A DNA stretch of 64,000 nt, from the NCBI GenBank assembly GCA_050916095.1, contig CP050901.1:1655474-1719473 (forward strand). The letters are read 5' to 3'. How positions within the stretch are numbered: the stretch's first letter is position 1; each line of letters starts with the position of its first letter. Source of the stretch: Rhizobacter sp. (GTDB taxonomy: Bacteria; Pseudomonadota; Gammaproteobacteria; Burkholderiales; Burkholderiaceae_C). The notes beneath the pieces were generated by a model, which worked only from the letters and a program-made list of their open reading frames with translations, did not search any database and was not told the DNA's origin. The position numbers and the translations under genes are program-made. Of this stretch, positions 7,586 to 22,102 are shown piece after piece.

Positions 7586-8337
7586 GCTCCCTTCTTCACC
7601 AAAGCAGTGCGCATGGCCGTGACGTTGGCCGTCTCTTTGCTGACTGGCGAGCCAGTCAGAAAGTACGCGTGCAACTGACGCGCGAAACGATTGAGTTTGT
7701 TGGTGACGCCTTTGTTGCTGCGGATGAATGCGTTGTAGCCCAGCACCGCAGGTATCGCTACCGCCAAACCAAAGGCCGTCATGATGAGGGCCTCGCCCAC
7801 AGGGCCCGCCACCTTGTCAATGCTGGCTTGGCCACTGGCACCAATGCCCACCAGCGCGTGGTAGATGCCCCAAACGGTGCCGAAGAGACCGACAAACGGC
7901 GCGGTGGAGCCCACCGAAGCCAGCACGGCCAAGCCTGCGTTCATCCGTTCAGTGCTGTCGTCAATGGCCCCGCGCAGGCTTTCGCTCAGCCACTCGGCCA
8001 AACTGAGCTGGCCGTGCAAGTCGTCCTTGTTGCTGCTGTGGTGGTCTACTGCTGCCTGGCCTTCCAGCGCGATGAAACGAAAAGGGTTGTTCGCGCCTTG
8101 CTGGTCCAACAGAGCCATTCCTTCGGCAAAGCTGTGGGTGTGCCAAAAGTCCGCCACCGCACGTCCCGCACGGCGTAGCCGCATGGTGCGCCAGGTGCGG
8201 GTGGCGATGACGTACCAAGACACGATGGACATCAGCAGCAGCAACATGGCCACGCTTTTAATGATGGCGTCGCCTTGCGCCCAAAGCGCGGCCAGGCCGT
8301 AGGGGTTGTCGGTCATTGAAGAATCTCCATAGAACAA
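7582..8337 (-). CDS. exbB: MotA/TolQ/ExbB proton channel
   Basis: 251 aa, three-TM ExbB pattern. 4-bp overlap with exbD. Confidence 0.85.
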   Translation of the reverse strand: MFYGDSSMTDNPYGLAALWAQGDAIIKSVAMLLLLMSIVSWYVIATRTWRTMRLRRAGRAVADFWHTHSFAEGMALLDQQGANNPFRFIALEGQAAVDHHSSNKDDLHGQLSLAEWLSESLRGAIDDSTERMNAGLAVLASVGSTAPFVGLFGTVWGIYHALVGIGASGQASIDKVAGPVGEALIMTAFGLAVAIPAVLGYNAFIRSNKGVTNKLNRFARQLHAYFLTGSPVSKETANVTAMRTALVKKGA

Positions 8338-8370
8338 GGAATCACAAGGGATGAGGGAGGACTGAACAAC

Positions 8371-9156
8371 TCAACCCTCCAGTGAAAAGGTCAAAGGCTG
8401 CACATACCAAAAGGGGATGGCCTCGCTGCCGCGCCGGGCGGGCTGGTAACGCCATTGCCGCACCGCCTCCAGCGCGGCTTGATCCAGCCGGGGATAGCCG
8501 CTGCTGCGTTTGAGTTTGATGTCGCCCACCGAGCCATCGGCCAGGATATAAACATCCAACTGAACGCGGCCTTGTTCACCCAAACGCCGGGAGACGGGCG
8601 GATAGGCGGGGGCGGGGTTGTTGAGGTGGGCGGCATCCGAACGCGGTGGCACCACGGGCGCGGGGACGGCCACTGGTGCAGGCGCGGGCGGTGCAGGGGA
8701 AGGAAGTGCCTCGACCGCAGCAGCCTCTGCCACGGCGGGGGGGGCGGGCACAGGTGGCGCTGCCGTGACTGCCCGCTCGGAAGGTGCTGCCACAGGTGCG
8801 GGGGGCACGGGCTGGCGTCGCACCACGGGCCGAGGTGGCGGCTGCGGTTGCGGTTGTGCCACTGCCGGCAAGGGCACCGGTTCGACCACCGGTGGGGCCG
8901 TGACCAGCATGCCCACCACAGCAGGTGGTGCGACAGGCAGGTTGTGTTGGTTGAAGTATTGAATCAGCACCACCGCCAGCAGCAAGTGAAGCAAAGCCAC
9001 GGCCATCAAGGCCCAGGGGTTTTCAGAACTGCCCTGAGTCGCTGCAACAACCAGTGTGTGCAGAGGTGGTGCAGGCGGCGGTGTGTCGGAACGGGTATCC
9101 GCCGGATTGCCGGTCAAACCCGTTGCAATCGGTATTGATTGAGAAAATGCAGACAT
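8371..9156 (-). CDS. tonB: energy transducer TonB
   Basis: N-terminal TM segment, long Pro/Ala-rich linker, C-terminal TonB domain (...YPRLDQAALEAVRQWRYQP...). Confidence 0.85.
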   Translation of the reverse strand: MSAFSQSIPIATGLTGNPADTRSDTPPPAPPLHTLVVAATQGSSENPWALMAVALLHLLLAVVLIQYFNQHNLPVAPPAVVGMLVTAPPVVEPVPLPAVAQPQPQPPPRPVVRRQPVPPAPVAAPSERAVTAAPPVPAPPAVAEAAAVEALPSPAPPAPAPVAVPAPVVPPRSDAAHLNNPAPAYPPVSRRLGEQGRVQLDVYILADGSVGDIKLKRSSGYPRLDQAALEAVRQWRYQPARRGSEAIPFWYVQPLTFSLEG

Positions 9157-9210
9157 GGTGAAGCCTCAGACAAACACAGGGCTGGCTTCACCGGAGGTGT
9201 GGCTGGCGCG
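9157..9210 (-). ncRNA. conserved 5' leader hairpin element (copy 1, tonB leader)
   Basis: RNA-sense GGUGAAGCC ... 18 nt ... GGCUUCACC-AUG. Includes a GGCUGGC direct repeat and a CACC-GGA-GGUG mini-hairpin. Nearly identical in sequence and spacing to 12561-12613. Confidence 0.4.
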
Positions 9211-9230
9211 AGGGCTGATTGTAGCTCGCA

Positions 9231-9251
9231 AATGAGAATGATTCTTATTAC
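9231..9251. promoter_or_regulatory. candidate Fur box upstream of tonB-exbBD
   Basis: AATGAGAATGATTCTTATTAC resembles the 19-bp Fur consensus GATAATGATAATCATTATC. Lies about 75 nt upstream of the tonB ATG. Confidence 0.45.
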
Positions 9252-9269
9252 TGAATGGGTTTCAAATCA

Positions 9270-9602
9270 TCACTTCGAACTGCTGTCGTGCTGAAGCTGA
9301 CGCGCCAGGGGTGCGAGCCACCGAGGCTTCCATGTCAGCACGAAAGCCACGGTCATGGCATTGAACGTCAGCATCACGGTCCACAACAAGCTGCCAAAAC
9401 CGGGGCCCTGGCTGTGCAGGAGGCCCATGAGGGCGCAGGCCTGCATCAGCAAACCCACGGCTGCCAGCCCACGTCCACCGAGGCGCTGTGCCAGGGGCAA
9501 ACCCGAGACATGGCTCCAATGCCGCTCTTGTGAGAGCGCCAGCGCGACAAACCCCAGCCAACTGCCGACAAAGGCCAGCCCGGTCAGCACTGTTTCAAAC
9601 AT
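9270..9602 (-). CDS. DUF3325 domain membrane protein
   Basis: 110-aa hydrophobic protein directly downstream of the PepSY-TM gene, the typical partner arrangement. Confidence 0.7.
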   Translation of the reverse strand: MFETVLTGLAFVGSWLGFVALALSQERHWSHVSGLPLAQRLGGRGLAAVGLLMQACALMGLLHSQGPGFGSLLWTVMLTFNAMTVAFVLTWKPRWLAPLARQLQHDSSSK

Positions 9603-11238
9603 GGTGAGTCCTGGTGTTGGCGGTGACGGCTTGAGTCACCAAATGTTCTGTGTGCGTCGCTGTTCGATTCGCCTGCGGCTGGGCGCCGCCTAAACGCTGA
9701 AAACACCAGCTTGCTAGCCCGGCAACCGCCAGCAGCATCACATCCATGCCGGCCACTGGCCAGTAGCCGCGTGCCAAGGTAGCGGCCACGTGGTCGCCGG
9801 TGGTGACGCCGTTGAGCACGACGGCCAAGATCGCCAGCGCCGCAATCGCCAGGCACTGCTCGCGCCAGGCCCGCCGTGCCGGTTGGGTCGCCGGGTCGGC
9901 GCGCCGCCAGGCGGCGTGGGCGAATGTGGCCAGCCACACCAAATAAAAGGCCCACATTTCCAGTGCGGCACGGTCTTGTGCAGCGAATTGAGCATCCAAG
10001 GGCAGCAGGCGGTTTGTCACGAAAAACGCCAGCGTGGCGATGACGATGCCGGTGATGCTGCCAATGGCGAGCGCTTCCACCAGGCGCACTCCAGCGAGCC
10101 CTTTTTGGGCATGGCTGGCGCGGCGAGACTCCAGCCAAAAGATAAAGCCGGTGGCGATCATCACGCAGCCCGCCAACCCCGCAGCAAAGTACAACCACCG
10201 CAAGGTCCAGTGCCGAAACTGGATGAAGTGCAAGCCGCTGATGAAACGCTGCACCGTCATCACGGGCGCGGAGTTGAAGCTGTAGAGCACGCGGCCCGAC
10301 ACGCCGTCTAGGTACAACTGGTCCAGGTTCATCGTCACACTGTCTTCATAGCTGCGGCGCAGTTCCACGTAGCTGGCTTTGTCTCCAGGGTGCCAAACGC
10401 GGATGAAATTCGCCTCACCGCCTTGCCACTGGGTGCGCGCCTGGGCACGCATGGCGTCCAGCGAGGCGAGGTTGGACGCGGGTTCACCCTCGGTGGCGCG
10501 GCGGTACTGGCCATAGCCGTCCTTGTTGAAAGCTTGGCGCGCCGCTGGCACGTCCTTGGCTTCAGGGTAGGCCGCGCTGTAGCTGCTGGGCCAGTAAATG
10601 CCCATGAAAATCACCAGACCCGACAGCGCCATCACAAAATGAAATGGCATGGCCAGAACGCCCGTGAGGTTGTGTAAGTCCAGGCTGGCGCGCTGGATGT
10701 GTTTTTTGGGACGGAACAAAAAGAAGTCGGCAAAAATTTTGCGATGAATCACCACGCCGCTGACCACCATCACCAGCATGGCCATGCCCGCCATGCCCAC
10801 CAGCCAGTAGCCCAGGTCTTTCCACTTCAGGTGCAGATTGAAGTGGAAGGGAAAAATAAAACCCGTGCCCGCCAACGTTTCTGTGTGTGCCAGCACCGCG
10901 CCGGTTTGCGGGTGCAGGTAGCGGCGCTCGGTGGTTTTGGTGGCCTCGTTGCGCCAGCGCAGCTCCACCGCAGGCACCCGCTCGCTGGGCAGTCGCAAAA
11001 ACCATTGCGAAGCGCCCTGCGCAAGCTGCTGTGCTTGCGCGGTGATGGGCCCGTCCAGCTGCACTGCTTCTGTGTCCAGCTTGGGCGACAAGCGTGTGCC
11101 GGGCGACATCCAGCGGTCAATCTCGCGGTCAAACACACTGAGCGTGCCCATCCAAAAAATCGCCAACAGCAAGCTGCCAATCACCACCCCCGCCCATGTA
11201 TGCAACCAGGCCATTGATTTGCGGAAAGTTGCTTCCAT
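9595..11238 (-). CDS. PepSY-associated TM helix protein (PiuB-like iron-uptake membrane protein)
   Basis: Start trimmed to MEATFRKSMAWLHTWAGVV.... Multiple TM segments and periplasmic loops. Confidence 0.8.
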   Translation of the reverse strand: MEATFRKSMAWLHTWAGVVIGSLLLAIFWMGTLSVFDREIDRWMSPGTRLSPKLDTEAVQLDGPITAQAQQLAQGASQWFLRLPSERVPAVELRWRNEATKTTERRYLHPQTGAVLAHTETLAGTGFIFPFHFNLHLKWKDLGYWLVGMAGMAMLVMVVSGVVIHRKIFADFFLFRPKKHIQRASLDLHNLTGVLAMPFHFVMALSGLVIFMGIYWPSSYSAAYPEAKDVPAARQAFNKDGYGQYRRATEGEPASNLASLDAMRAQARTQWQGGEANFIRVWHPGDKASYVELRRSYEDSVTMNLDQLYLDGVSGRVLYSFNSAPVMTVQRFISGLHFIQFRHWTLRWLYFAAGLAGCVMIATGFIFWLESRRASHAQKGLAGVRLVEALAIGSITGIVIATLAFFVTNRLLPLDAQFAAQDRAALEMWAFYLVWLATFAHAAWRRADPATQPARRAWREQCLAIAALAILAVVLNGVTTGDHVAATLARGYWPVAGMDVMLLAVAGLASWCFQRLGGAQPQANRTATHTEHLVTQAVTANTRTHHV

Positions 11239-11248
11239 GCCCTTGCTC

Positions 11249-11542
11249 CTAAATGAACTGCAATACACCCCAGGCCAGCGCCGCGCCGCCCAGCACACCC
11301 AGACTCAAGCGAGAAGTACTGCGCACACTGAAGGCCCACAGCAGCACCACCAGGTAAATCACAAAACCCAGCATCGCCGCCGACACCGTGGCTTCGCTGC
11401 GTGGCAGCCCTGCCAGCACCAAACCCTGGGTGAGCAAAGCCACCAGTGCGGCAGTGAGGGCGTAACCACCCGCCACCGCCAGGGTGACCCGCAGCAGCAT
11501 TCGTGATGCCAGGCGGAAACCAGAGGGTGAATTTGTTGTCAT
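11249..11542 (-). CDS. DUF3649 domain membrane protein
   Basis: Start trimmed to MTTNSPSGFRLASRMLLRVTLAVAGGYALT.... Canonical upstream partner of PepSY-TM and DUF3325. Confidence 0.7.
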   Translation of the reverse strand: MTTNSPSGFRLASRMLLRVTLAVAGGYALTAALVALLTQGLVLAGLPRSEATVSAAMLGFVIYLVVLLWAFSVRSTSRLSLGVLGGAALAWGVLQFI

Positions 11543-11780
11543 GTCATTCCCCGCTGGAAGGGTTTTGCAGATAGGTTCACGACCCATTGAAAACGCAGAA
11601 ACTCAAAACGGCACCCCCAGCCAGGCCCCGGGTAGAGGTTGGTGGGCCCGGCGGCGTTGCCGCTGATCGACATAGAAAGGTTCGCGCCGAAACCCAGCGC
11701 GCGAACCGAAGGGCCGCGTGGCAAGGCAGCTTGCAATGAAAGTAGCCTCAGTAAGAGGGGGGCGACTGGAACCGTCATGC

Positions 11781-12560
11781 TCACTTCATGACATTGGGCG
11801 GTGCAGCGGGCAATGTCGGCAGCGGGGCCAAGCCTTTGGCTTGTACCAAGGTGAGCGTGGTGACGAAACTGCTGCGGTCGTAAGCCTCCGGGCCGCTTGC
11901 GCCTTGGCGCTCGCCTGGGCCAGTGCTGTGTTTGACCTCGGCGGTGTAGGTGCCGCGCCAGGGCATGGCCACCTTGAGCTTGCCTTGGTTGTCGGCTTCG
12001 TGCTCACGCAACCAGCCTGAGCTGGTCACGAACACCACCTTGGCTTTGGGCAGGGGCTGGCCGTCGTAGAAGGCCTGTAGCTCCACACCGTCCGCACCGC
12101 TTTTGCCGGTGGGCACCAGGTCGAGTTTGAGTTGCGGCGCTTGTGGCGAAAGGTCTGTCACCAGGCGTGCGGCGGGGTGGTAAACGCTGCGCACGGTTTT
12201 GTCGCCGTCCTTGCGCTCACTCATGGGGTAGGTGGGCTCCTCCGCCACCAGGGATTCGCCGCGTGCGGCACGGCCAGAAAGCACAAAACCGGCGGCGGTT
12301 TTGTGCAAAGTCAAGGGTCGCACCCCTTGTGCTGAAACCTGGCGCGCAACCGGTTTGACGAACTTGTCGAGCAGCCCCGGCGAGGCTTCGCGCAGGTTGC
12401 CTCCGAACTCGCCAAAGTAAAGCACGGCGTTTCGGTTGTTCTGTTCGATCCAAATTTGGTGGGCTTGGGCCGAGCCGAGCGTTGTAGCCAGCATGGCAGA
12501 TAAAGCAAGGGCGCGCAGCGATGCCGTTAGCCGTGATTGCGAGGCGGTAGAGGTCAACAT
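11781..12560 (-). CDS. DUF4198 domain periplasmic protein
   Basis: Signal peptide (MLTSTASQSRLTASLRALALSAMLATTLGSAQA). Commonly encoded with TonB-dependent and PepSY iron systems. Confidence 0.7.
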   Translation of the reverse strand: MLTSTASQSRLTASLRALALSAMLATTLGSAQAHQIWIEQNNRNAVLYFGEFGGNLREASPGLLDKFVKPVARQVSAQGVRPLTLHKTAAGFVLSGRAARGESLVAEEPTYPMSERKDGDKTVRSVYHPAARLVTDLSPQAPQLKLDLVPTGKSGADGVELQAFYDGQPLPKAKVVFVTSSGWLREHEADNQGKLKVAMPWRGTYTAEVKHSTGPGERQGASGPEAYDRSSFVTTLTLVQAKGLAPLPTLPAAPPNVMK

Positions 12561-12613
12561 GGTGAAACCTTTGAATAAAGAAAAGGCTGGCTTCACGCGG
12601 GGTGTGGCTGGCG
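12561..12613 (-). ncRNA. conserved 5' leader hairpin element (copy 2, DUF4198 operon leader)
   Basis: Same architecture as 9157-9210: GUGAAGCC paired with GGUUUCAC immediately 5' of the AUG, with a compensatory G-U wobble. Confidence 0.4.
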
Positions 12614-12633
12614 GATGGAAAATTATATATACA

Positions 12634-12652
12634 AATGCGAATCATTCGCATT
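12634..12652. promoter_or_regulatory. candidate Fur box (near-palindrome) upstream of the DUF4198 operon
   Basis: AATGCGAATCATTCGCATT, a near-perfect palindrome close to the Fur consensus. Adjacent AT-rich stretch AAAATTATATATAC. Confidence 0.5.
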
Positions 12653-12706
12653 AAAATGATTGTCTCCTGTCAGCACAGACCAACTGACCGGTGTTGATGA
12701 ACCTGC

Positions 12707-12769
12707 CACCCCGCACCCCGCACCCCGCACCCCGCACCCCGCACCCCGCACCCCGCACCCCGCACCCCG
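12707..12769. repeat. heptanucleotide tandem repeat (CACCCCG)x9
   Basis: Nine perfect tandem copies counted directly, followed by a degenerate tenth. Lies in the divergent intergenic region between the DUF4198 operon and the DUF2325 gene. Confidence 0.9.
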
Positions 12770-12927
12770 CCAGCCCGCGCCAGCCAGTGCTCCTCGAAAA
12801 GGAATGCTGCCCATGCCGCGTCAGTGCCCCATCGCCCGAAACACCCGCTTTCCTTGCGCTACGCCACCACAGAATATGCGGTTGCGCTGTATTGAGTTTG
12901 CGCCCAAGCGACTTGCCGGAATGTCCC

Positions 12928-14241
12928 ATGAATGCTGGTGAAGAGGCTTCGCCAGACCGCCTCGGCGAGGTGTCGCTGCAAAGTGTGGTGAGCGCATTGC
13001 AAGCGCGTGGTGACCGCTGCTGTGCGCCCGTGGTCTCACTGCTTCCTGCCAGTCGGGCGGGTTCCCGTCGCCGTCGCCTGTGGGAGTTGAACGGTCATGC
13101 CCACTGCCCGGTGGTCGGCCTGTGCCTGCCTGTGAGTCTGGTTCGACGCTTGGTGACCAAAGCTCTGGGCCTCGCGGACGAAGACGACTATGTGTTGCAC
13201 TGTGACGCTGTCGCGGCGGCGCAGCACCGCACCTTGATCGCCGAGGCCTTGCAGCGTGAACTGGAACGGCGCCATGCGCCCCAGGTGCGATCCGTCGCCG
13301 CCCTCAAAACCCAGGATGACTTGCGGTTGTGGTGGCAAACCCAGCGCTACGAACCCGGCATTGCGGGGGCGTTGTGGGCAATTCTTACCCACCCCCGCTG
13401 CACCCCTGGCCTGGAGCGCCGCGTGCTGGCAGATGTTCACATGCAGCAACACGAGCTGGGACAAAACCTGCGCGCCCAGGGTGATCGGTTGATTGGCCTG
13501 CAAAAGGCCAATGTGGAACTGGTGCAAGAAAAAACCCAACTACAAAACCGGGTTGACGTAACCATGCGCCAACTCACCCAACAGCGTGAGACCCTGACTG
13601 CTGAACTCATGCGCCTGCGCGGCCAGTTGCTCGTCAAAGACGCCACCATCACCGGCCTGCAGGACGAATTGCGCGAGTTGCGCCGCGCGCAACCCGGCTT
13701 GCCCCAGCGCAAAGCACTGGCCGAGCAGGTGGCCAACCAGAATGAACAACTGCGTGATTTGCAGCGTGAATTACACCTGACCAAGCAAAAGATACCGGCC
13801 GCGCCCCGCTCCGCGACGGCTGCTGCCCCGGCAGCGCCGGTCGGTGAAACTGTCGCCGTACCCTTGCGATTTTTTGAGAACCGACCAGCAACGCCGACCG
13901 CGCTTGCAGCCCAAGCGGTGCTCTGCGTGGGCGGGCGTACCGGGGCAGTGCCTGCTTACAAACGCCTCGTGGAAAACATTGGCGCGCGTTTTCTGCACCA
14001 CGACGGCGGCGACGAGGACAACCCGCAGCGCCTCGCCGCCACGCTGGCTGCCGCCGACTTGGTGATCTGCCAAACCGGCTGCGTCAGTCACGATGCCTAC
14101 TGGCGCGTGAAAGACCATTGCAAACGAACCGGAACCCGCTGCGTCTTTGTGAACAACCCCAGTGCCAGCAGCTTGTTGCGTGCGCTGAAACAAGTGGCTT
14201 CAGGCAAGCACACAGAGTTTGCTCATGAACAGTCCAATTAA
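12928..14241 (+). CDS. DUF2325 domain protein with central coiled-coil
   Basis: The C-terminal region (LCVGGRTGAVPAYKRLVENIGARFLHHDGG...ICQTGCVSHDAYWRVKDHCKRTG) matches DUF2325. I trimmed the start to MNAGEEASP.... The upstream PRTPHPA translation is simply the heptamer DNA repeat read in frame. Confidence 0.7.
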   Translation: MNAGEEASPDRLGEVSLQSVVSALQARGDRCCAPVVSLLPASRAGSRRRRLWELNGHAHCPVVGLCLPVSLVRRLVTKALGLADEDDYVLHCDAVAAAQHRTLIAEALQRELERRHAPQVRSVAALKTQDDLRLWWQTQRYEPGIAGALWAILTHPRCTPGLERRVLADVHMQQHELGQNLRAQGDRLIGLQKANVELVQEKTQLQNRVDVTMRQLTQQRETLTAELMRLRGQLLVKDATITGLQDELRELRRAQPGLPQRKALAEQVANQNEQLRDLQRELHLTKQKIPAAPRSATAAAPAAPVGETVAVPLRFFENRPATPTALAAQAVLCVGGRTGAVPAYKRLVENIGARFLHHDGGDEDNPQRLAATLAAADLVICQTGCVSHDAYWRVKDHCKRTGTRCVFVNNPSASSLLRALKQVASGKHTEFAHEQSN

Positions 14242-14623
14242 AACCCCATCCCAGGAAATGCTGGCGCGTTGGGATCGTTTGGGGTTGAGCGTGCGCTGCG
14301 CCTATTGCCCGGCCTATGGCAACCTCATACGCTGTTACCTGGCCTTGGGGGGTCTGCTGGTTCACCGAGGCGTTCTCACAGAACTGGCCGCCAACCAGCG
14401 CATGCTCACACTGCTGCTGCAAACGGCAGGTGACGAGGCTTTGCCGTGGTTTTGGCGTTCCGTGTGCATTGAACACACCGCCCTGCCGCAGGCACGGCTG
14501 GTGTCGCAACTCAAACTGCACGATCCCCTGGCCGTGGAGGGTGTACTGGCGGCAGTGCAACAAGCACGCGACGCACTGCCATGCCAGCCCGGCCACTTTC
14601 CCGCAGCATGCGCTCCTCGATGA
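14225..14623 (+). CDS. hypothetical protein
   Basis: 133-aa ORF overlapping the DUF2325 stop. No recognisable family. Confidence 0.35.
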   Translation: MNSPIKTPSQEMLARWDRLGLSVRCAYCPAYGNLIRCYLALGGLLVHRGVLTELAANQRMLTLLLQTAGDEALPWFWRSVCIEHTALPQARLVSQLKLHDPLAVEGVLAAVQQARDALPCQPGHFPAACAPR

Positions 14624-14975
14624 GGCGAGCCATCGTGAAGTCCAGACCTTCGCGCCGGGGCCGAAACAAGCGCCAAGCCGAGCGAAGTGCCGCAGAACAC
14701 CGGCGCCTGGCTTGGCGGCGTGAGCGTTGGCGAGATGGGTTCACCGGTGCCGTGGTTGCCGGTGTTGTGGGGGCGATATTTTGGATTTTCCCGCCCTCAA
14801 TACCGGGTGGCGGTTGGGACGCTGGGCCTCTGGTGTCGTTTGTGTGGTGATGTGAGGGCCGCCAACGCCCGGGGCACAATCAATGGCTGCAAACTCATCC
14901 AGGAGCCCCCACCATGCAAGGCGACCCCCAAGTCATTACTGACCTTGCCTCTGTAATCCGTATCCCATAACCGAG

Positions 14976-15872
14976 TCACGAATTGGCTTGCATGGCCTGG
15001 GCCGCAAACCAGCTTTGCTCGAACTGCATCGGACTGACATAGGCCAGAGTCGAGTGCAGCCGGGCTTGGTTGTACCAAAGCAGCCAGGCCATGACCTCGT
15101 CTTTGGCTTGCCTCCTGGTTTCAAAGCGCTGCCCATGTAGGCGTTCTACCTTCAGTGACCCGAACAAGGTCTCGCTGCACGCATTGTCCCAACAGTTGCC
15201 CCGCCTGCTCATGGACGCCTGAATTCCGTACTCACTGAGCACGTCCCTGAAGTCTTGGCTTGCGTATTGACTGCCTCTGTCGCTGTGGAAGATCAGCCCT
15301 GCGCCTTTGTCTGGATGTCGCTTGAACCATGCCATGCGCAGCGCATCAATGACGATGTCGCGTGTCATGTCTTGCCGCAAGCTCCAGCCCACCACTTGAC
15401 GGCTGAAGAGGTCAATCACCACTGCCAGGTACAGCCAGCCCTCTTGGGTGTCGATGTAGGTGATGTCCCCCGCCCACACCTTGTCAGGCTCTTGAACGTT
15501 GAATTGCCGCTCCAGCAGGTTGGGTGCAATCGGCAAATCATGTTTGCTGTCGGTGGTGATCTTGAATCTGCGTTTGCCTTTGGCGCGAATGCCGTGCAAT
15601 TGCATGAGCTTTTGCACCCGGTCTTTGCCCACCCGGATGCCGCGTGCCAGCAGTTCTTTCCACATGCGAGGCCAGCCGTAGCTGGCCCTGACCTGGGCGT
15701 GAATTGCTTTGATGTGTACCAGCAAGGCGTCATCACTGAGGTGGCGTCGTTGCGCCGCACTGGCCCGCCGCAGGAAGTGCTCGTGATACCCGGCCACGCT
15801 GACACGCAGAACCCGGCACTGCACAGAGATTGGCCACACCCGCCGGTGGCTTTGTATGAAGGCGTACTTCAC
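14976..15872 (-). CDS. IS3-family transposase OrfB (DDE integrase core)
   Basis: 298 aa, rve/DDE domain. Overlaps OrfA by 4 bp, probably expressed as an OrfAB fusion by -1 frameshifting. Confidence 0.9.
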   Translation of the reverse strand: MKYAFIQSHRRVWPISVQCRVLRVSVAGYHEHFLRRASAAQRRHLSDDALLVHIKAIHAQVRASYGWPRMWKELLARGIRVGKDRVQKLMQLHGIRAKGKRRFKITTDSKHDLPIAPNLLERQFNVQEPDKVWAGDITYIDTQEGWLYLAVVIDLFSRQVVGWSLRQDMTRDIVIDALRMAWFKRHPDKGAGLIFHSDRGSQYASQDFRDVLSEYGIQASMSRRGNCWDNACSETLFGSLKVERLHGQRFETRRQAKDEVMAWLLWYNQARLHSTLAYVSPMQFEQSWFAAQAMQANS

Positions 15873-16168
15873 GTCGATCCCTTTGCAAAGTACGCCGTGG
15901 CCTTTTCCAGGATGTCGCGCTCCATCTTGACCCGCGCCAGCTCTGCCCTCAAGCGGCTGATCTCCATTTGTTCGCTGCTTACCTTGACCCGGCTGTCAGC
16001 GCCCTTGAGTTTGCCTTCGCGGTGCGCTTTGATCCAGTTGAACAGCGTCTGCTCAACCACCCCAAGCGTCCTGGCCGCTGCCGCCATGCTTTGGCCGCCT
16101 TCCACCAGCCGCACCGCCTCGAACTTGAACTCCTGCGTGTACCTCGCCCTTTTGGCTCTCTTCGTCAT
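15869..16168 (-). CDS. IS3-family transposase OrfA (HTH)
   Basis: 99 aa, MTKRAKRARYTQEFKFEAVRLV...ILEKATAYFAK, typical of IS3 OrfA. Confidence 0.9.
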   Translation of the reverse strand: MTKRAKRARYTQEFKFEAVRLVEGGQSMAAAARTLGVVEQTLFNWIKAHREGKLKGADSRVKVSSEQMEISRLRAELARVKMERDILEKATAYFAKGST

Positions 16169-17112
16169 TTCCGCTCTCCTTTGCTTGCGATTGAATCACT
16201 CAGCAAGGGATACGGTTTTCGGGGGCAAGGTCATTACCGCGCTGCAAGCGCAACTCAGAAACGAACTCACGGCCATCAACCAGTATTTCGTCCACTACCG
16301 CATGTTCAAACACTGGGGTTTTGAGAAGATTGCCAAGAAGGAGTACGAGGAGTCCATTGGCGAGATGAAACACGCCGATGCGTTGATGGAGCGCATCTTT
16401 GCGCTCGACGGTCTGCCCAATTTGCAAGACCTGGGCAAGTTGTTCATCGGTGAAACTCTGGTGGAAGCACTGCGTTGCGACCTCACCTCTGAGCAAGGGG
16501 CACAGCAAACCATCAAAGACGGTATTCATACCTGCGAGGCCGCCCGAGACTATGTGTCACGCGACCTGCTGCAAGGCATTTTGGAAGACACCGAAGAACA
16601 CATCGACTTCCTGGAAACCCAGCTCGATCTGGTAGCCAAGGTGGGTGAGCAGAACTACCTTCAGTCGCAGATGGGTTGACTTTTGATGGGTGGACTCAGT
16701 CGTCGAACGTCAGCTGAGGCACCTCCGATACCGTGACTTGCTCGCAGTGCTCGCCAGGGCTGCGATAGCTGTCACGGGGCCAGCACCCCGATGGTGTCCA
16801 GATCTTCAATGCTCTGCTCACGGCAGGAGTCTCCGGCCGACATTCAAAACAGTGAGTGCTCCGACGCGAAGCGTTGTCGAGCGACCATGTGTGGACCCGC
16901 CGCCATCACCCGGCGAGTCGCTTGGCCCAACGGCAACGCCGGAGAACATCAGGCCAAAAAGCCGCTTGTCCACAGTCCGGCCAAGGGTAAGCGTGGAAGC
17001 CGCAGGTGTAAGCGCGGCGCGCTCTTGTGCATCGCTTTGCCCTCGTGTGTCTTATAGAAGCAGTTTCTGCCGTGACAGGCGGGTTAACGATGGCCGTCAG
17101 CTTGGGCGCGGA

Positions 17113-17131
17113 ACGTGTTGTAATGCGAATC
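17113..17131. promoter_or_regulatory. candidate Fur box upstream of bfd-hemP
   Basis: AATGCGAATCGTTCTCATT is the same variant as the box at 12634. It is about 440 bp upstream of bfd, so the regulatory link is uncertain. Confidence 0.35.
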
Positions 17132-17568
17132 GTTCTCATTTATAGTATCCGAACTGGTCTGTTATGCCAAAACCAATTCACGACAGAACCCACCCGCGAA
17201 GGGCTGTGGCCGGTTTAACAGATCGTTCAGCCACATCGCCCGCTAGGGCGCTATCTCCGTACTCTGGAGGAGTCGATCTTGAAACATCTCCTGCCTAATT
17301 GCCGAGCCGCGACGCTCACGCGAGTTGTTGCGCTGCCGAGGAATTCACAGCTGTCTTGGCTCTCTACGGCCATCAGTCGGTTGAAGGCTGAGGCTCGAGG
17401 CTCGATTTTGGGTACCGCCCATCTGCTCATTCAGTGCGATCAAGGCAGTGCCTGCGGGCATGAATCCAGAAAAGACGGGCTCACTCGCTTATGTTTTATC
17501 CATGCATCGCAAAACAACGGCCCGTTCCTGGGCGGTTCTGGGGGGCGGAGCGCCGAAGGAGCACAAGC

Positions 17569-17820
17569 ATGATCGTGTGCATTTGCCACCGCGTCTCCGA
17601 CCGGGACATTCACCGCGCTGTTCACGAAGGCTGCCGCAGTTTTGAAGACCTGCAAGATGAATTGCGCGTGGCCACAGGCTGTGGGGCGTGCACGCGCTGC
17701 GCAGCCCATCTTTTCGAGGCACAAGTGCAGGCCTGCTCGAAGGTTTGTTCTGCGGAAACGTCAGCCACTTGCTCGGCTGGTTTGCAATCGTCGGTGAACT
17801 TTTTGCAGGTGGCCGCATGA
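17569..17820 (+). CDS. bfd: BFD-like [2Fe-2S]-binding protein (bacterioferritin-associated ferredoxin)
   Basis: MIVCICHRVSDRDIHRAVHEGCRSFEDLQDELRVATGCGACTRCA with CxC...CxxC. RBS AAGGAG. Confidence 0.8.
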   Translation: MIVCICHRVSDRDIHRAVHEGCRSFEDLQDELRVATGCGACTRCAAHLFEAQVQACSKVCSAETSATCSAGLQSSVNFLQVAA

Positions 17821-18038
17821 ACGAAAACTCCTCGGGCGCGCCCCTGCCACAGCCCGTCCAACCGGACCAGCAGGGTGACTTTGTTTTCACCCATTCCCAC
17901 CGTAACGCAGGCCAACCCGTGCGGCGAATCACCAGCGCCCAGCTTTTTGGTACCAACCAGGAAATTGAAATCGAACACGGCGGCAGTTGTTATCGACTGC
18001 GGCAAACCGCCTTGGGAAAACTCATCATGACCAAGTAG
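17817..18038 (+). CDS. hemP: hemin uptake protein HemP
   Basis: 73 aa, ...RITSAQLFGTNQEIEIEHGGSCYRLRQTALGKLIMTK. ATGA overlap with bfd. Confidence 0.75.
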   Translation: MNENSSGAPLPQPVQPDQQGDFVFTHSHRNAGQPVRRITSAQLFGTNQEIEIEHGGSCYRLRQTALGKLIMTK

Positions 18039-19080
18039 CGCATCGTTTACTAAGCGATCACGTTTTTAAAATTTTTGGGTCTGGGCTCCCACTCGAATCG
18101 TGCTCTGGTACTGCTGTGCTGAATTCACAGCAGTGTCCATTCGCGGCGTTGTCGCAGCTTTTTCGAGCAGCGCAGATAGCACGCTGGGTTTTGACCGTCC
18201 AAGTCTCACCTCAGTGGCAAGGTGCTTCGACTTCGATGGCACGACTCGTTTTGTTGATCTCACAAGCGCTGCAGTGGCAAACGCAAACGACGTGTATCAG
18301 CGAGGTTTTTGGGTGGCCTGTATCAGCCGTGCTTTTGGCGATTTTTAGTGGCCATTTGGCGCGCCCAAATCACGCTACCGAAAAGGGTTCTAACCCGCAG
18401 AGCTTTCGGTTGGCGAGCACGGTTACCACATTGACGGGTATAGCGACCCATTGCAAACTGAAGACTCTTGCCGGACCACTGTTCCGGTCCCATCGAGGGA
18501 GAAACAGGCCGGGTTCCTGCTTCCGGTCCCAAGAAGGAAAAACAGGCGTCGCAGTCGTTACCTGCCTCAGAGAACTTTTTTAGTCTCTCCCGTGCATAGG
18601 CGCAAGCCTCTGCACCCGTTCAAAAGACGCGCTGCTGTGCACCGGCTGAGCAGCGACAGTCTCGTGCCCCCGTGGCCTCTATGCACTGCGCTTGTGCGCC
18701 GCCCGGTAAAGAAGGCCACCGTTTTTTTTTAAGCGCACCCAGCCACCGCTGCTTGCGCCGCGAATTGCAAGAGCCAGCGTCGTCACTGGCGGCTAGCTGA
18801 CAGTGACGACGCTCTAACATGGCTTTCTCCCCTGTCAAGGGCCCAATTTTTGCCCCGTGACGGGGTGAAGTGACGAGCAAATGGAAGGCCCAAGCCATCG
18901 TTGGCAACGGACGCAAAATGCCGTTGTCAAGGCTGCTGATGAGCGCCGCACAGAGCCTCGAGGTCGCAGATTATTTTGACCCCTCCCCCCACTGCGGGAA
19001 TTTTTACGCCCACCCCCAACGTCAGTGGGCCAGAGGACTCAGGCCCTGGGCTTTCAGTTTGCCTAAGAATTTTTTTAGTG

Positions 19081-19620
19081 GATGAGGACTTGCTGCCCTT
19101 GTCCCATGGCGCGGTTGAATCTGCGCCCGATTGACTTGCGTGGTGACAGCCCTGCTGTCACCACGCCGCCGAGTCCCCCGTCAGAGGACGCTCGAAGGTC
19201 AAGCCTTCGATTCGCAAGGGGTTGCCCCCTTCACACTGGAGTGCGGTGTCGAACCGCCCCCGCTTTGAGTTGCCACGGCTTGACCGTGGCTGTCTCCGCC
19301 AGATTCCCGTCAGAGGATCAGCGAAGGTTAGTTTTTTGCCTTTGCAGTGGATGAGGTTCTGATGACCTTCATCCAGCGGCGCGGTTCGCCCCGCGCCCAA
19401 AGTCTCCGCATGGCCACAGCTCCGCTGTCGCCATGCCGCCAGGTTCCCCGTCAGAGAACTTCAGAAGGTCAAGCCTTCGGATTGCAAGGGTTTGCGCCCT
19501 TCACCTTTGGTTGCGGCTTGTCCCGCACCGCCCTTGAGTTGCCACGGCTTGACTGTGGTGGCCCACGTCAGATCCCCCGTCAGAGGATCAACCACTGAAC
19601 GTGTGCGAAGCACACCCCTT
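19081..19620. repeat. two tandem ~270-bp repeat units (~75-80% identical) with conserved hairpins
   Basis: Both units begin GATGAGG..., contain CCCGTCAGAGGA sub-repeats (4 copies), and have hairpins TGGTGACAG/CTGTCACCA and GCCACGG/CCGTGGC that keep pairing through partly compensatory changes. Confidence 0.6.
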
Positions 19621-19862
19621 GGACCCTGGGTCAATGGTCTGCTGTGTGAGCTGTACCCACAGGTACGACACACAGTGCCACATGCGCGTGCAACGCAGGC
19701 AAGTTGTACCCCTTTGCACAAACGGGATTGGTGTCCCGTGTCCCTTGTGATTCCTACTCGCTGCGGCGTTTGGGATGGACAGAAACACTTACCGATTTTT
19801 TGGCACCACGTTTTCATTTTTGGTTTTCTTGTTTTTGCTCCGCTGTTTTCAAGAGGTACCCC

Positions 19863-20729
19863 ATGCGCAACCTGAACCACGATTTCAAGAACCTTGCCCG
19901 TCGCAACCGAGATGGGTCGTTTGCGACCCAGCATGACCGAGAGGTCATGCTGACCTTGGTCGCGAATCAATTGCACGAAGGGGGCTTCCGGCATCTACGG
20001 GCCACGGGGGTGCGCTCCAAGCATGTGGAGCATTTGGTGAACCGCTGGCATGAAGAAGGCATCAGCCCCGGCACCTTCAAGAACCGGATGAGCGCTTTGC
20101 GTTGGTTGGCCGAGAAGATCGGCAAACAAAACATCGTGGCCCGTGAGAATGCGGCCTATGGCATTGCGGATCGGCGCCACGTGACGAATGAATCCAAGGC
20201 CCAGTTGTTGGAAATCGCACGCCTTGATGTGGTGACCGATCCGTACACGGTGTTGTCGCTGAGGCTGCAAGAAGCCTTTGGTCTGCGGCGGGAGGAAAGC
20301 ATCAAGCTGCAGCCCGTTTGGGCCGATCGTGGCGATGTGTTGCGACTCAAGGCCAGTTGGACCAAAGGCGGCAAGGAGCGGGAAGTTCCGATCGTCACTG
20401 ATGTACAGCGCCTAGCGTTGAACGATGCCAAACAGTTGGCGGGTTCAGCGTCCTTGATCCCTGAAGGCATGTCCTACCGCGACCAACTCAACCGCTTCAA
20501 GGCGCAAGCGGCCAAGGCGGGCATCAACCGGGTGCATGGGCTGCGGCATCAATACGCGCAGCGGCGGTATCAACAGCTCACCGGATGGAAGGCTCCCGCA
20601 GCGGGTGGGCCAACTTCAAAGCAACTCAGTGCGGAGCAGAAGGCGTTGGACCGGCAAGCACGCCTTGTTGTCTCGCGTGAGCTGGGTCATGAGCGCGAGC
20701 AAATAACTTCGGTTTATTTAGGCCGCTGA
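19863..20729 (+). CDS. tyrosine recombinase / phage-type integrase family protein
   Basis: C-terminal HGLRHQYAQRR ... LGHEREQITSVYLGR (H-x-x-R and catalytic Tyr). Start trimmed to MRNLNHDFKNLA. Confidence 0.7.
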   Translation: MRNLNHDFKNLARRNRDGSFATQHDREVMLTLVANQLHEGGFRHLRATGVRSKHVEHLVNRWHEEGISPGTFKNRMSALRWLAEKIGKQNIVARENAAYGIADRRHVTNESKAQLLEIARLDVVTDPYTVLSLRLQEAFGLRREESIKLQPVWADRGDVLRLKASWTKGGKEREVPIVTDVQRLALNDAKQLAGSASLIPEGMSYRDQLNRFKAQAAKAGINRVHGLRHQYAQRRYQQLTGWKAPAAGGPTSKQLSAEQKALDRQARLVVSRELGHEREQITSVYLGR

Positions 20730-20763
20730 ACCAGAACCGCAATGCATGACTGGTCAGACCGCC

Positions 20764-21135
20764 ATGAACACGCTGGACCTGGTTCAAGCCGCACACCTGC
20801 TAAAGGTGCATCCAAAGACCTTGGAGCGTCTGGCACGCAGTGGTGCGGTTCCGGCCTGCAAGGTGGGACGCGCCTGGGTCTTTGTCGACGACTTGCTTCT
20901 TGAAATGCTGGTGTCAAAATCGACCTCGCGTGTGTCCGTGGTCGACTTACAGGAGAACTCTGAATGTCGCTCTACAGACGCAAGGACTCACCATTTTGGT
21001 GGGTCAAACTCCCGCTCATTCGCGGCGAGTCGAAGCCTTTACAGCAAAGCACTGGGACTGCCGATAAGCGGCAGGCGCAGCAGGTCCATGACCAGCTCGC
21101 CGCCGCCCGATGGGAGCAAGAACGGCTTGGTGTGA
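20764..21135 (+). CDS. AlpA/Xis-like helix-turn-helix excisionase-family protein (3' extent uncertain)
   Basis: MNTLDLVQAAHLLKVHPKTLERLARSGAVPACKVGRAWVFVDDLLLEML is a classic phage regulatory HTH. The ORF as drawn overlaps the int start by about 170 bp. Confidence 0.5.
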   Translation: MNTLDLVQAAHLLKVHPKTLERLARSGAVPACKVGRAWVFVDDLLLEMLVSKSTSRVSVVDLQENSECRSTDARTHHFGGSNSRSFAASRSLYSKALGLPISGRRSRSMTSSPPPDGSKNGLV

Positions 21136-21998
21136 AGGCCCGGCACACCTGGGAAGAGGCGGTACTGCGCTGGCTCTTGGAAACGAAGCACAAGGCCACG
21201 CACGAAGATGACAAGGCAAAGCTTCGCTGGCTGGATTCTTACCTTGGAGGAAAGTACCTCGACGAGATCGACCGAACGCTGATTGACCGGATCAAGTTTG
21301 ACCGCGAAAACGTCTCTTCGCACTCAACAACAAACCGCTACTTGGCTTTGGTGAGAGCGATTCTCAAACGTGCTTGCAACGAGTGGGAATGGCTGGAACG
21401 GGTGCCCAAGTTCAAGTTGTTCAAGGAAACCGAAGGCCGGGTTCGTTCATTGACACCGCAGGAATTTCAGACGCTGTTGAATGAACTGCCGGAGCACTTG
21501 TTCGACATGGCGGTGTTCGCAGTGGCAACCGGGCTCAGGCAAGCCAACGTGAAGGGCTTGCAGTGGTCACAGGTGGACTTGGAACGACAACATGCCTGGA
21601 TTCCTGGAAGCCAGCACAAGAATGGCAAGCCGCATTCGGTGCCTTTGAACGACATGGCCTTAACTGTGTTGGGCAGGCAACTGGGCAAGCACCCGAGTTG
21701 TGTGTTCACTTACCAGGGTCAAGCCATCGAGCAAGTCTCCACGCGGGCTTGGCGGCGGGCGCTGGAGCGGGCAGGGATTGCGGACTTTCGGTGGCACGAT
21801 TTGCGGCACACGTTTGCGACATGGCACCGGCAGGCCGGAACACCCACCCATGAGCTACAGCGGCTCGGTGGTTGGAAAACCGGCGTGATGGTGGAACGTT
21901 ACGCCCATGTCGCACCCGAGGCGTTGCAAAGTGCGGCCAGCCGGTTGGATGGGTTTGGTGGCTACGATTTGGCTACGCCACAAAGGACAACGGCTTAG
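20964..21998 (+). CDS. int: tyrosine-type site-specific integrase (phage/island integrase adjacent to tRNA)
   Basis: 344 aa with R...HDLRHTF...Y catalytic signature (WHDLRHTFATWHRQAGT ... VERYAHV). Ends 29 bp from the 3' end of tRNA-Asn. Confidence 0.85.
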   Translation: MSLYRRKDSPFWWVKLPLIRGESKPLQQSTGTADKRQAQQVHDQLAAARWEQERLGVKARHTWEEAVLRWLLETKHKATHEDDKAKLRWLDSYLGGKYLDEIDRTLIDRIKFDRENVSSHSTTNRYLALVRAILKRACNEWEWLERVPKFKLFKETEGRVRSLTPQEFQTLLNELPEHLFDMAVFAVATGLRQANVKGLQWSQVDLERQHAWIPGSQHKNGKPHSVPLNDMALTVLGRQLGKHPSCVFTYQGQAIEQVSTRAWRRALERAGIADFRWHDLRHTFATWHRQAGTPTHELQRLGGWKTGVMVERYAHVAPEALQSAASRLDGFGGYDLATPQRTTA

Positions 21999-22026
21999 AC
22001 ATTTCTGTCTAAGCCGTTGATTTTCT

Positions 22027-22102
22027 TGGCTCCTCGACCTGGGCTCGAACCAGGGACCTACGGATTAACAGTCCGGCGCTCTACCGACTGAGCTATCGAG
22101 GA
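22027..22102 (-). tRNA. tRNA-Asn (GTT), 76 nt with encoded CCA
   Basis: Reverse complement reads TCCTCGATAGCTCAGTCGGTAGAGCGCCGGACTGTTAATCCGTAGGTCCCTGGTTCGAGCCCAGGTCGAGGAGCCA. Anticodon loop CU-GUU-AA, T-loop GGTTCGAGCCC, 7-bp acceptor stem TCCTCGA/TCGAGGA. Confidence 0.9.

Follow-up and report, generated by a model that had tools for sequence, protein, structure and literature searches.

The window examined here, 64,000 nucleotides of contig CP050901.1 from Rhizobacter sp., contains two adjacent units of roughly 270 bp upstream of a gene for a 288-aa tyrosine-recombinase-like protein, and the question raised by the locus is what these units do and why their hairpins stay paired through substitutions. 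An initial annotation proposed selection on RNA or DNA secondary structure and offered three candidates, namely small structured RNAs, sites of the arm or accessory type to which the adjacent integrases would bind, and a repeated attachment region of a decayed island. The structured RNA fits best among these, as the stems co-vary and the plus strand folds. Our favored explanation, to which we give a probability of about 0.6, is that the units form the duplicated 5' hairpin domain of a sense transcript resembling the sgm-sRNA of the island SGI1 and belonging to a mobilization module of the MpsA type, where the same DNA may hold an origin of transfer (oriT).

Tandem units and their hairpins

The two units are arranged head-to-tail and both start with AGTGGATGAGG (coordinates are given in Table 1). 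A MAFFT alignment showed 82% column identity with four indels of 1, 1, 1, and 4 nt, the ungapped repeat families gave 77 to 78% identity at a spacing of 269 to 270 bp, and a blastn self-hit in contig L001, which is 99% identical to the window, gave 74% over 249 nt (E = 1e-35). The first description of two adjacent units of about 270 bp with 75 to 80% identity therefore holds, at about 75 to 82%. Tandem Repeats Finder did not report the repeat. Each unit contains two copies of the motif CCCGTCAGAG(G/A)A, which correspond to the two sub-repeats per unit already described, and the four copies at positions 19177, 19306, 19447, and 19576 (CCCGTCAGAGGA, with CCCGTCAGAGAA in one copy) form hairpin loops. 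No further copies of CCCGTCAGAGGA were found within the 64-kb window, and four matches were reached in 0 of 100 shuffles.

Each unit is predicted to fold into nine consecutive local hairpins (H1, H2, Hx, He', Ha, Hb, Hc, Hd, and He), which include all of the hairpins named in the initial annotation. The folding of both units, on either strand, is better than that of 200 of 200 shuffles, with z values between -3.9 and -5.4. With the structure derived from unit 1, and thus from one of the two copies being compared, 67 of its 79 predicted pairs are kept in unit 2 (51 unchanged, 7 with compensatory double changes, and 9 in which one partner changed without loss of pairing) and 12 no longer pair, compared with 52 +/- 2.9 kept pairs when the same number of stem substitutions is placed at random, where 67 was reached in 0 of 5,000 simulations. 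The retention of pairing through substitutions is thus statistically real, whereas the example originally quoted for it, TG:CA to CC:CG, is not fully paired, being composed of one compensated pair (T:A to C:G) and an adjoining new C:C mismatch. The hairpins He' and He have the loop CCCGTCAGA, giving four such hairpins across both units, and their stems differ among the copies yet remain complementary (GTCC/GGAC, GATTC/GGATC, GGTTC/GAACT, and GATCC/GGATC).

The Ha loop is TCAAG in the window (19193-19209 and 19464-19478) and CTTGA, CCAGA, or CAAGA in relatives, the comparison being made with L012 (5546-5562). Within a unit, the Ha sequence GGTCAAGCC matches GGCTTGACC of Hd exactly as its reverse complement, suggesting an inversion of the loop or, alternatively, a 9-bp long-range helix.

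Both units are also present in three other elements (L156, L157, and L158), whose relaxase-like protein is 92 to 93% identical to that of the window. The contigs of L156 and L158 show a different setting, with a P4-type integrase, beside serS or with Fic cargo. In the three elements, the orthologues are 89 to 94% identical for unit 1, 90 to 95% for unit 2, and 88 to 89% for the relaxase gene. Because both units are as conserved as the relaxase gene, the module is not decaying, and both unit copies are maintained, with purifying selection acting on each. Over the eight unit copies, the nine hairpins are paired in 95.4% of the cells, compared with 38 to 51% when the partners are slid. The one-sided changes among these copies are nearly all of the wobble type, with 42 G·U or U·G cells versus 2 A·C or C·A cells, which indicates that the plus strand, sense to the relaxase gene, is the folding strand. 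These data support selection on the secondary structure of a single strand and not on coding, and the many stably retained wobble pairs favor RNA rather than DNA.

The hairpins are not restricted to these close orthologues. Across 14 relatives, the unit hairpins are paired in 81% of the cells versus 30 to 54% with slid partners, and 0 of 500 shuffles were as high. Relatives of the same subfamily carry a single Ha-Hb-Hc-Hd-He set 5' of the core described below, to which unit 2 is the corresponding copy, and the loops recur as CYNGA (CTTGA, CCAGA, CCTGA, and CCCGA) on co-varying stems. Additional copies, to which the initial annotation had looked as a check on its proposal, were thus found elsewhere, with the hairpins kept in orthologous regions. 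Units 1 and 2 are mutual nearest relatives at 75% identity, compared with 70% and 64% to L078, so that the repeat is a local duplication; a tandem accretion, in which two units from two different elements came to lie side by side, is ruled out by the same comparison. The number of sets varies, with two sets in L078 and additional Hb-like hairpins in L018 and L130, indicating that duplication of the module is recurrent in the family. The CCCGTCA motif occurs once or twice in most loci versus four times in the window.

Two to three copies of the module are found in some genomes (Hydrogenophaga intermedia and MFD00392). In several public assemblies, a contig boundary falls within the repeat-core region or at its margin: L020 and L021 start 276 nt before the gene, and the contig from JGI 3300059473 starts 443 nt before the relaxase-like gene. 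These breaks are consistent with a multi-copy or tandem sequence collapsing in assembly.

The structured core and the MpsA-family gene

When the 420 nt preceding the gene were aligned among relatives, a highly conserved element ending in GGACAGAAACACTTACC became apparent, and we refer to it as the core. Its helix P0 coincides with hairpin He of unit 2, so that the units continue the core directly on its 5' side. In 61 non-redundant homologues, 82.6% of the cells of the proposed core structure are paired versus 35 to 44% with slid partners, and 0 of 500 shuffles were as high. The alignment contains 348 double-change cells compared with 48 to 88 with slid partners, with many compensatory changes in helices P2, P4, P5, P8, and P9. 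A pseudoknot results from the helix TGCG/CGCA, whose CG pair is GC in 17 sequences and whose two strands flank the 5' strand of P5, and G·U exceeds A·C about 4:1 in the well-aligned helices. Helix P3 is poorly aligned across subfamilies (44% paired, MAFFT) and is drawn from the window's own subfamily only. With the covariance model R1, the window yields a single copy, located at 19556-19805 and scoring 189 bits.

The Rfam check proposed in the initial annotation matched no family: a cmscan search of 17000-22000 against Rfam 15 (E <= 10) gave four chance-level hits, none within 19077-19600, and one of them, c4-a1b1 at 19700-19742, scores 15.9 bits compared with a gathering score of 46.7. A weak hit to the KDPG-aldolase RNA on the minus strand at 17781-17868 (20 bits versus a gathering score of 54.6, E = 1.9) matches the conserved CUGUGGCAGGGGCG stretch well and is probably due to chance. 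Neither the repeats nor the core had a blastn match in phages, plasmids, or E. coli genomes, and the nine matches of the pattern CCCGTCAGAG-N105-135-CCCGTCAGAG in viral contigs were all judged to be chance.

The tail of the core was searched with a 17-mer containing one ambiguous position, GGACAGAAACACTWACC, which has at least 120 matches in metagenomes and 0 matches in viral contigs, which indicates that the element is not phage-borne. Among the 120 matches listed, about 100 are true homologues by nhmmer; 81 of 118 cores are followed by an MpsA-like gene starting 44 to 122 nt downstream, and 8 are cut by contig ends.

The 288-aa protein has the Pfam domains Phage_int_SAM_2 and Integrase_1. 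Its BLASTP match to MpsA of SGI1 (L155:3730-4695) extends from residue 5 to 287 versus 7 to 321 with 29% identity (E = 7e-25), and the aligned blocks FGLRREES/FGLRFEES, TKGGKER/TKGGRAR, HGLRHQYA/HGERHHYA, and TSVYLG/TNSYLG are accompanied by aligned positions for the catalytic R, K, HxxR, H, and Y, as read from the alignment. MpsA is described as the atypical tyrosine-recombinase-like relaxase of SGI1 (PMC6414798), and it matches Integrase_1 (PF12835) itself. On this homology, the gene initially called an adjacent integrase encodes a full-length MpsA homologue, and thus a relaxase candidate rather than an ordinary integrase. The SGI1 fragment L155 was recovered from a plasmid collection by a published knock-out primer sequence, for which E. 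coli genomes gave no match.

The protein has more than 6,800 homologues. Those on plasmids of 5.7 to 35 kb, with 43 to 59% identity, are immediately followed by a type IV coupling protein gene, as in Acinetobacter pAhaem5227a (5.7 kb, with RepM, this gene, and the coupling protein gene), a Pleionea plasmid, and Gallibacterium pUMN179. The slot directly upstream of the coupling protein gene is the usual position of a relaxase. The Francisella plasmid pOM1 was uninformative, as tet(C) has been inserted ahead of the gene in its record. The plasmids L153 (pAhaem5227a), L151, and L152 are classified as non-mobilizable by MOB-suite, yet they carry an MpsA-like gene followed by a coupling protein gene and probably have an unrecognized MOB_M mobilization module.

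Candidate functions of the hairpin array

The closest known system is SGI1, which has the order promoter, oriT, sgm-sRNA core of about 278 nt, and mpsA, all sense to mpsA (PMC9299015). The promoter lies about 700 nt upstream of mpsA, and the primary transcript runs through oriT and ends just before mpsA; its 3' part of about 278 nt is the essential sgm-sRNA core, while the 5' part is non-essential and influences maturation (PMC9299015). The sgm-sRNA acts in trans and is dispensable for MpsAB expression (PMC9299015). The oriT itself comprises 125 bp with three inverted repeats, about 300 to 430 bp before mpsA (PMC6414798).

The locus resembles SGI1 in several respects. Both are integrase-bearing integrative mobilizable islands, and the relaxase candidate here is homologous to MpsA over its full length (E = 7e-25). 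In both, a long stretch of conserved non-coding DNA with many inverted repeats directly precedes the relaxase gene and is sense to it. The order of hairpin-rich region, structured core, and relaxase gene in the same orientation is shared, and the core, with about 190 to 280 nt, ends a few tens of nucleotides before the start codon. Furthermore, the tail of the core, AACACUUACC (window 19781-19793), is conserved in Beta- and Gammaproteobacteria, where it lies 30 to 120 nt ahead of genes of the MpsA family. In SGI1 it reads TTTCACTTACC, 59 nt before mpsA, with the motif CACUUACC (L155 3661-3671), and in the window AACACTTACC, 70 nt before the gene; Gallibacterium has the variant AACACTTAGC, and the motif likewise precedes the homologue on the Pleionea plasmid; its positions in L151 and L152 are about 2938-2947 and about 30 nt before the ATG at 1172, respectively. 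The SGI1 copy lies inside the essential 3' end of the sgm-sRNA, at the boundary mapped by deletions. The reverse complement of the tail motif, GGTAAGTG, presumably resembles the core of the MOBQ nic region.

By analogy with SGI1, we infer that the region is transcribed sense to the relaxase gene as a long primary RNA. The units would be an old tandem duplication inside the non-coding part, about 1.1 kb long, of a mobilization module that is ordered as a modular array of small hairpins, a pseudoknotted core of about 190 nt, and, 70 nt further on, the MpsA-family relaxase gene. The 3' core would then be the functional sgm-sRNA-like molecule, serving relaxosome formation or docking to the coupling protein of a helper, and the hairpin array would be the 5' domain of the transcript, which may guide its folding or its processing or bind a protein. 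An origin of transfer may lie in this DNA as well, although any such role is, like the RNA function, something we infer. Hairpin modules were gained by duplication in several lineages, of which this one fixed two full sets with four CCCGUCAGA-loop hairpins.

Several points weigh against this explanation. The covariance model R1, run with filters off, finds no core in the SGI1 fragment L155, so that the parallel to the sgm-sRNA is positional; the core is a positional analogue and possibly a homologue, with homology open to doubt. R1 likewise finds no core in the gammaproteobacterial plasmids, where, as in SGI1, only the 8- to 10-nt tail motif is common. No mpsB-like gene follows the relaxase gene, the next gene being an integrase in the window and in relatives, and a scan of 18300-19900 gave no sigma-70-like promoter or terminator. 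Among the matches listed, 29 of 118 cores have other genes and no MpsA-like gene downstream. The covariation counts in the eight-copy alignment represent few independent events, and a plus DNA strand folding during transfer would give the same strand asymmetry. The locus also differs from SGI1 in that its core has no sequence or structure homology detectable by covariance model, in that mpsB is present in SGI1 and not here, in its host range of Burkholderiales and other environmental Proteobacteria, and in its modular, duplicated array with four CCCGUCAGA loops.

The main alternative, compatible but unlikely, is that the array is an oriT acting as DNA, with the hairpins forming in the displaced or transferred plus strand, where the MpsA-like relaxase would bind and nick them. 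The CCCGTCA or CYNGA loops would be the recognition or nic motifs, and the duplication would represent tandem oriTs. An oriT is usually located just upstream of the relaxase gene and rich in inverted repeats, as in SGI1 (PMC6414798), whose essential IR1 (CGCGCAC-GAAT-GTGCGCG) resembles core helix P1 (GTGTGC-GAAG-CACAC, 19601-19615). Conserved loops on co-varying stems would fit hairpin-specific recognition by a protein, and the strand asymmetry is compatible with a single folded DNA strand. However, the conserved structure, which continues without interruption over more than 700 nt and includes a pseudoknot, far exceeds known minimal oriTs in size, and the tolerance and stable retention of 42 G·U (G·T) pairs would sooner be expected of RNA. 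In F and RP4 the transferred strand is antisense to the relaxase gene; assuming that this carries over to MOB_M relaxases, the strand that folds here, being the sense strand, is not the canonical transferred one.

It is improbable that the region is a long cis-acting 5' leader of the relaxase mRNA, regulating translation or stability with a dispensable duplicated part. The core does lie on the strand of the gene and ends 44 to 122 nt before the start codon in 81 loci among the matches listed, and the leader at 19806-19862 is 98% identical in L156 and L157. Against this, the equivalent SGI1 RNA acts in trans and is unneeded for MpsAB expression (PMC9299015), the 29 cores mentioned above persist without the gene, and the units are not dispensable because both are as conserved as the relaxase gene.

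The integrase-site candidate of the initial annotation, in which the repeats are double-stranded arm-type, accessory, res, or att sites for the adjacent tyrosine recombinases (in one version with the 288-aa protein as a multimer resolvase), fares worse still and is very improbable. The repeated 12-mers do adjoin two tyrosine-recombinase genes, and the He hairpins resemble inverted arms of 5 to 9 bp around a spacer of 8 to 9 bp. Here, though, the arms co-vary and the spacer, or loop, stays fixed, which is the opposite of lox- or dif-type sites, and the G·U:A·C ratio of 42:2 indicates single-strand pairing. In addition, the protein is homologous to a mobilization protein and linked to coupling protein genes, and the module travels with different integrases. 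The junction with tRNA-Asn is 2.4 kb away from the repeats, and the search for a repeat resembling an att site gave none, which, together with the conservation of the module, also speaks against the repeated attachment region of a decayed island.

That each unit encodes a small protein can be dismissed: the initial annotation was mechanically wrong in stating that no open reading frame (ORF) spans the region, since two ORFs, one of 90 aa (19082-19354) and one of 83 aa (19347-19598), extend over the units, gene callers call a 78-aa ORF in unit 2, and genes are called in L001 and L156, yet these are not genes, as the two ORFs read the repeat in different frames, the orthologues in L156, L157, and L158 contain stops and frameshifts, the start codon of unit 2 is lost, and the substitutions by codon position (25/13/18 and 23/28/17) show no third-position excess. 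Its claim of selection on structure and not on coding is borne out by these broken, frame-inconsistent ORFs and the missing third-position bias, along with the compensatory changes.

Beyond SGI1, MobK with the oriT of pIGRK and TcpM with the oriT of pCW3 are likewise atypical MOB_M relaxases with a tyrosine recombinase fold, whose oriT with inverted and direct repeats lies immediately upstream of the gene (PMC8152469). By their descriptions they are set apart as being without a core-binding domain, whereas the 288-aa protein carries its own N-terminal PF12834 domain; no RNA partner is reported for MobK or TcpM (PMC8152469). The array proposed here as an RNA domain also has a formal likeness to a second group, given its similar small hairpins, recurring loop motif, and lineage-variable copy number. 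This group is formed by the CsrB/RsmZ-type RNAs, in which many hairpins present a repeated loop that binds protein. In the array the loops read CYNGA and CCCGUCAGA instead of GGA, and there is no CsrA-type context.

Island setting and implications

Table 1. Positions of the features discussed, in window coordinates
Feature	Position	Strand	Remarks
hemP-like ORF	17688-18038		Left of the conserved non-coding stretch
H0	18776-18813	+	13-bp perfect GC-rich inverted repeat AGCGTCGTCACTG...CAGTGACGACGCT, read from sequence
GTGAYG direct repeats	18853-18878	+	CCCCGTGACGGGG TGAAGTGACGAGC, read from sequence
Unit 1	19077-19344	+	268 bp; nine hairpins
Unit 1 hairpins	H1 19080-19104, H2 19108-19127, Hx 19138-19166, He' 19173-19189, Ha 19193-19209, Hb 19216-19231, Hc 19243-19257, Hd 19272-19290, He 19302-19319	+	He' loop CCCGUCAGA; He loop CCGUCAGA
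Unit 2	19345-19600	+	256 bp; nine hairpins as in unit 1
Unit 2 hairpins	H1 19349-19374, H2 19378-19397, Hx 19408-19436, He' 19442-19460, Ha 19464-19478, Hb 19486-19501, Hc 19513-19526, Hd 19541-19559, He 19571-19589	+	
Conserved structured core	19601-19793	+	61-homologue alignment, covariance model R1
Core helices	P1 19601-19615, P2 19621-19640, P3/P4 19642-19675, pseudoknot and P5 19683-19719, P6 19723-19738, P7-P9 19740-19780	+	
Core tail	19781-19793	+	Single-stranded, AGAAACACUUACC
MpsA-family (MOB_M-type) tyrosine-recombinase-like relaxase candidate	19863-20729	+	288 aa; PF12834 and PF12835
Tyrosine integrase of the island	20964-21998	+	PF00589 (Pfam); beside the tRNA
tRNA-Asn(GTT)	22027-22102	-	Probable integration target (ARAGORN)

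The conserved non-coding stretch begins around 18700, and the region 18700-19076, upstream of the units, is 88% identical in L156 and L158. Its inverted repeat H0 is kept in L012, L015, L018, L019, L024, L028, L038, L077, L127, and L147 and serves as a marker of the upstream part of the module. Two RGTGAYG repeats (in the window CCCCGTGACGGGG and AAGTGACGAGC) are found at the same place in most relatives. The sequence UGACGGGG is complementary to the CCCCGUCA hairpin loops 300 to 700 nt downstream, for which long-range pairing or a common protein site is possible, with no covariation to judge by. On the minus strand, a conserved TTGACA-N16-TAGAGC (18776-18841), which reads TTGACA-N16-TACAGC in L015 and L077, is located just upstream of H0 and is possibly a divergent promoter directed away from the relaxase gene, through H0 and toward the cargo side. 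A separate 38-nt tandem repeat, GCCGGACCACTGCTTCCGGTCCCAAGAAGGAAAAACAG, lies at 18470-18547 with 2.1 copies, 78% matches, and a small hairpin in each copy.

The locus is best explained as an island at a tRNA gene, that is, an integrative mobilizable element inserted at tRNA-Asn, beyond which a TonB-dependent receptor gene is found. The other (left) island end was not found, as 8000-21950 contains no repeat of the 3' end of tRNA-Asn. An IS3-family transposase ORF (rve, HTH_21) at 14976-15872 on the minus strand, about 3 kb left of the module, overlaps the 5' part of a long ORF with a ferritin-like C-terminus, which suggests a rearrangement on the cargo side of the island.

The relatives have a constant layout, composed of variable cargo (restriction-modification, toxin-antitoxin, or a mer operon), a gene-free region of 1 to 1.4 kb, the relaxase-like gene, a convergent P4-type integrase, and housekeeping genes. 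This integrase takes the slot of the window's island integrase on the opposite strand. The position of the relaxase-like gene beside an integrase agrees with a recent study in which MOB_M relaxases were reported to be the most frequent relaxases of chromosomes and to be integrase-adjacent in 96% of cases (bioRxiv 10.64898/2026.01.13.699239).

Only three MOB_M relaxases have been studied so far, and an essential small RNA, whose mechanism is obscure, was found for one of them. SGI1 is thus the one experimental case in which a MOB_M relaxase is known to be combined with an oriT upstream and an essential small RNA. What appears undescribed is the large environmental family seen here, whose pseudoknotted core is supported by covariation and whose hairpin array is modular and duplicates; neither Rfam nor the searchable literature yielded it. 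A large environmental branch of the MpsA family carries a much more strongly structured non-coding partner, and its helices, pseudoknot, invariant loops, and common CACUUACC tail offer a comparative handle on RNA in conjugative mobilization.

More speculatively, and with considerable doubt, the array and core could be a widespread undescribed class of RNA cofactor that assembles with MpsA-type relaxases into a DNA-processing ribonucleoprotein for conjugation. Such a cofactor would, for example, present the oriT or dock to a foreign coupling protein, and the number of CCCGUCAGA and CYNGA hairpin modules would tune protein loading. For annotation, the finding means that many genes called integrases, and small plasmids called non-mobilizable, may be mis-annotated.

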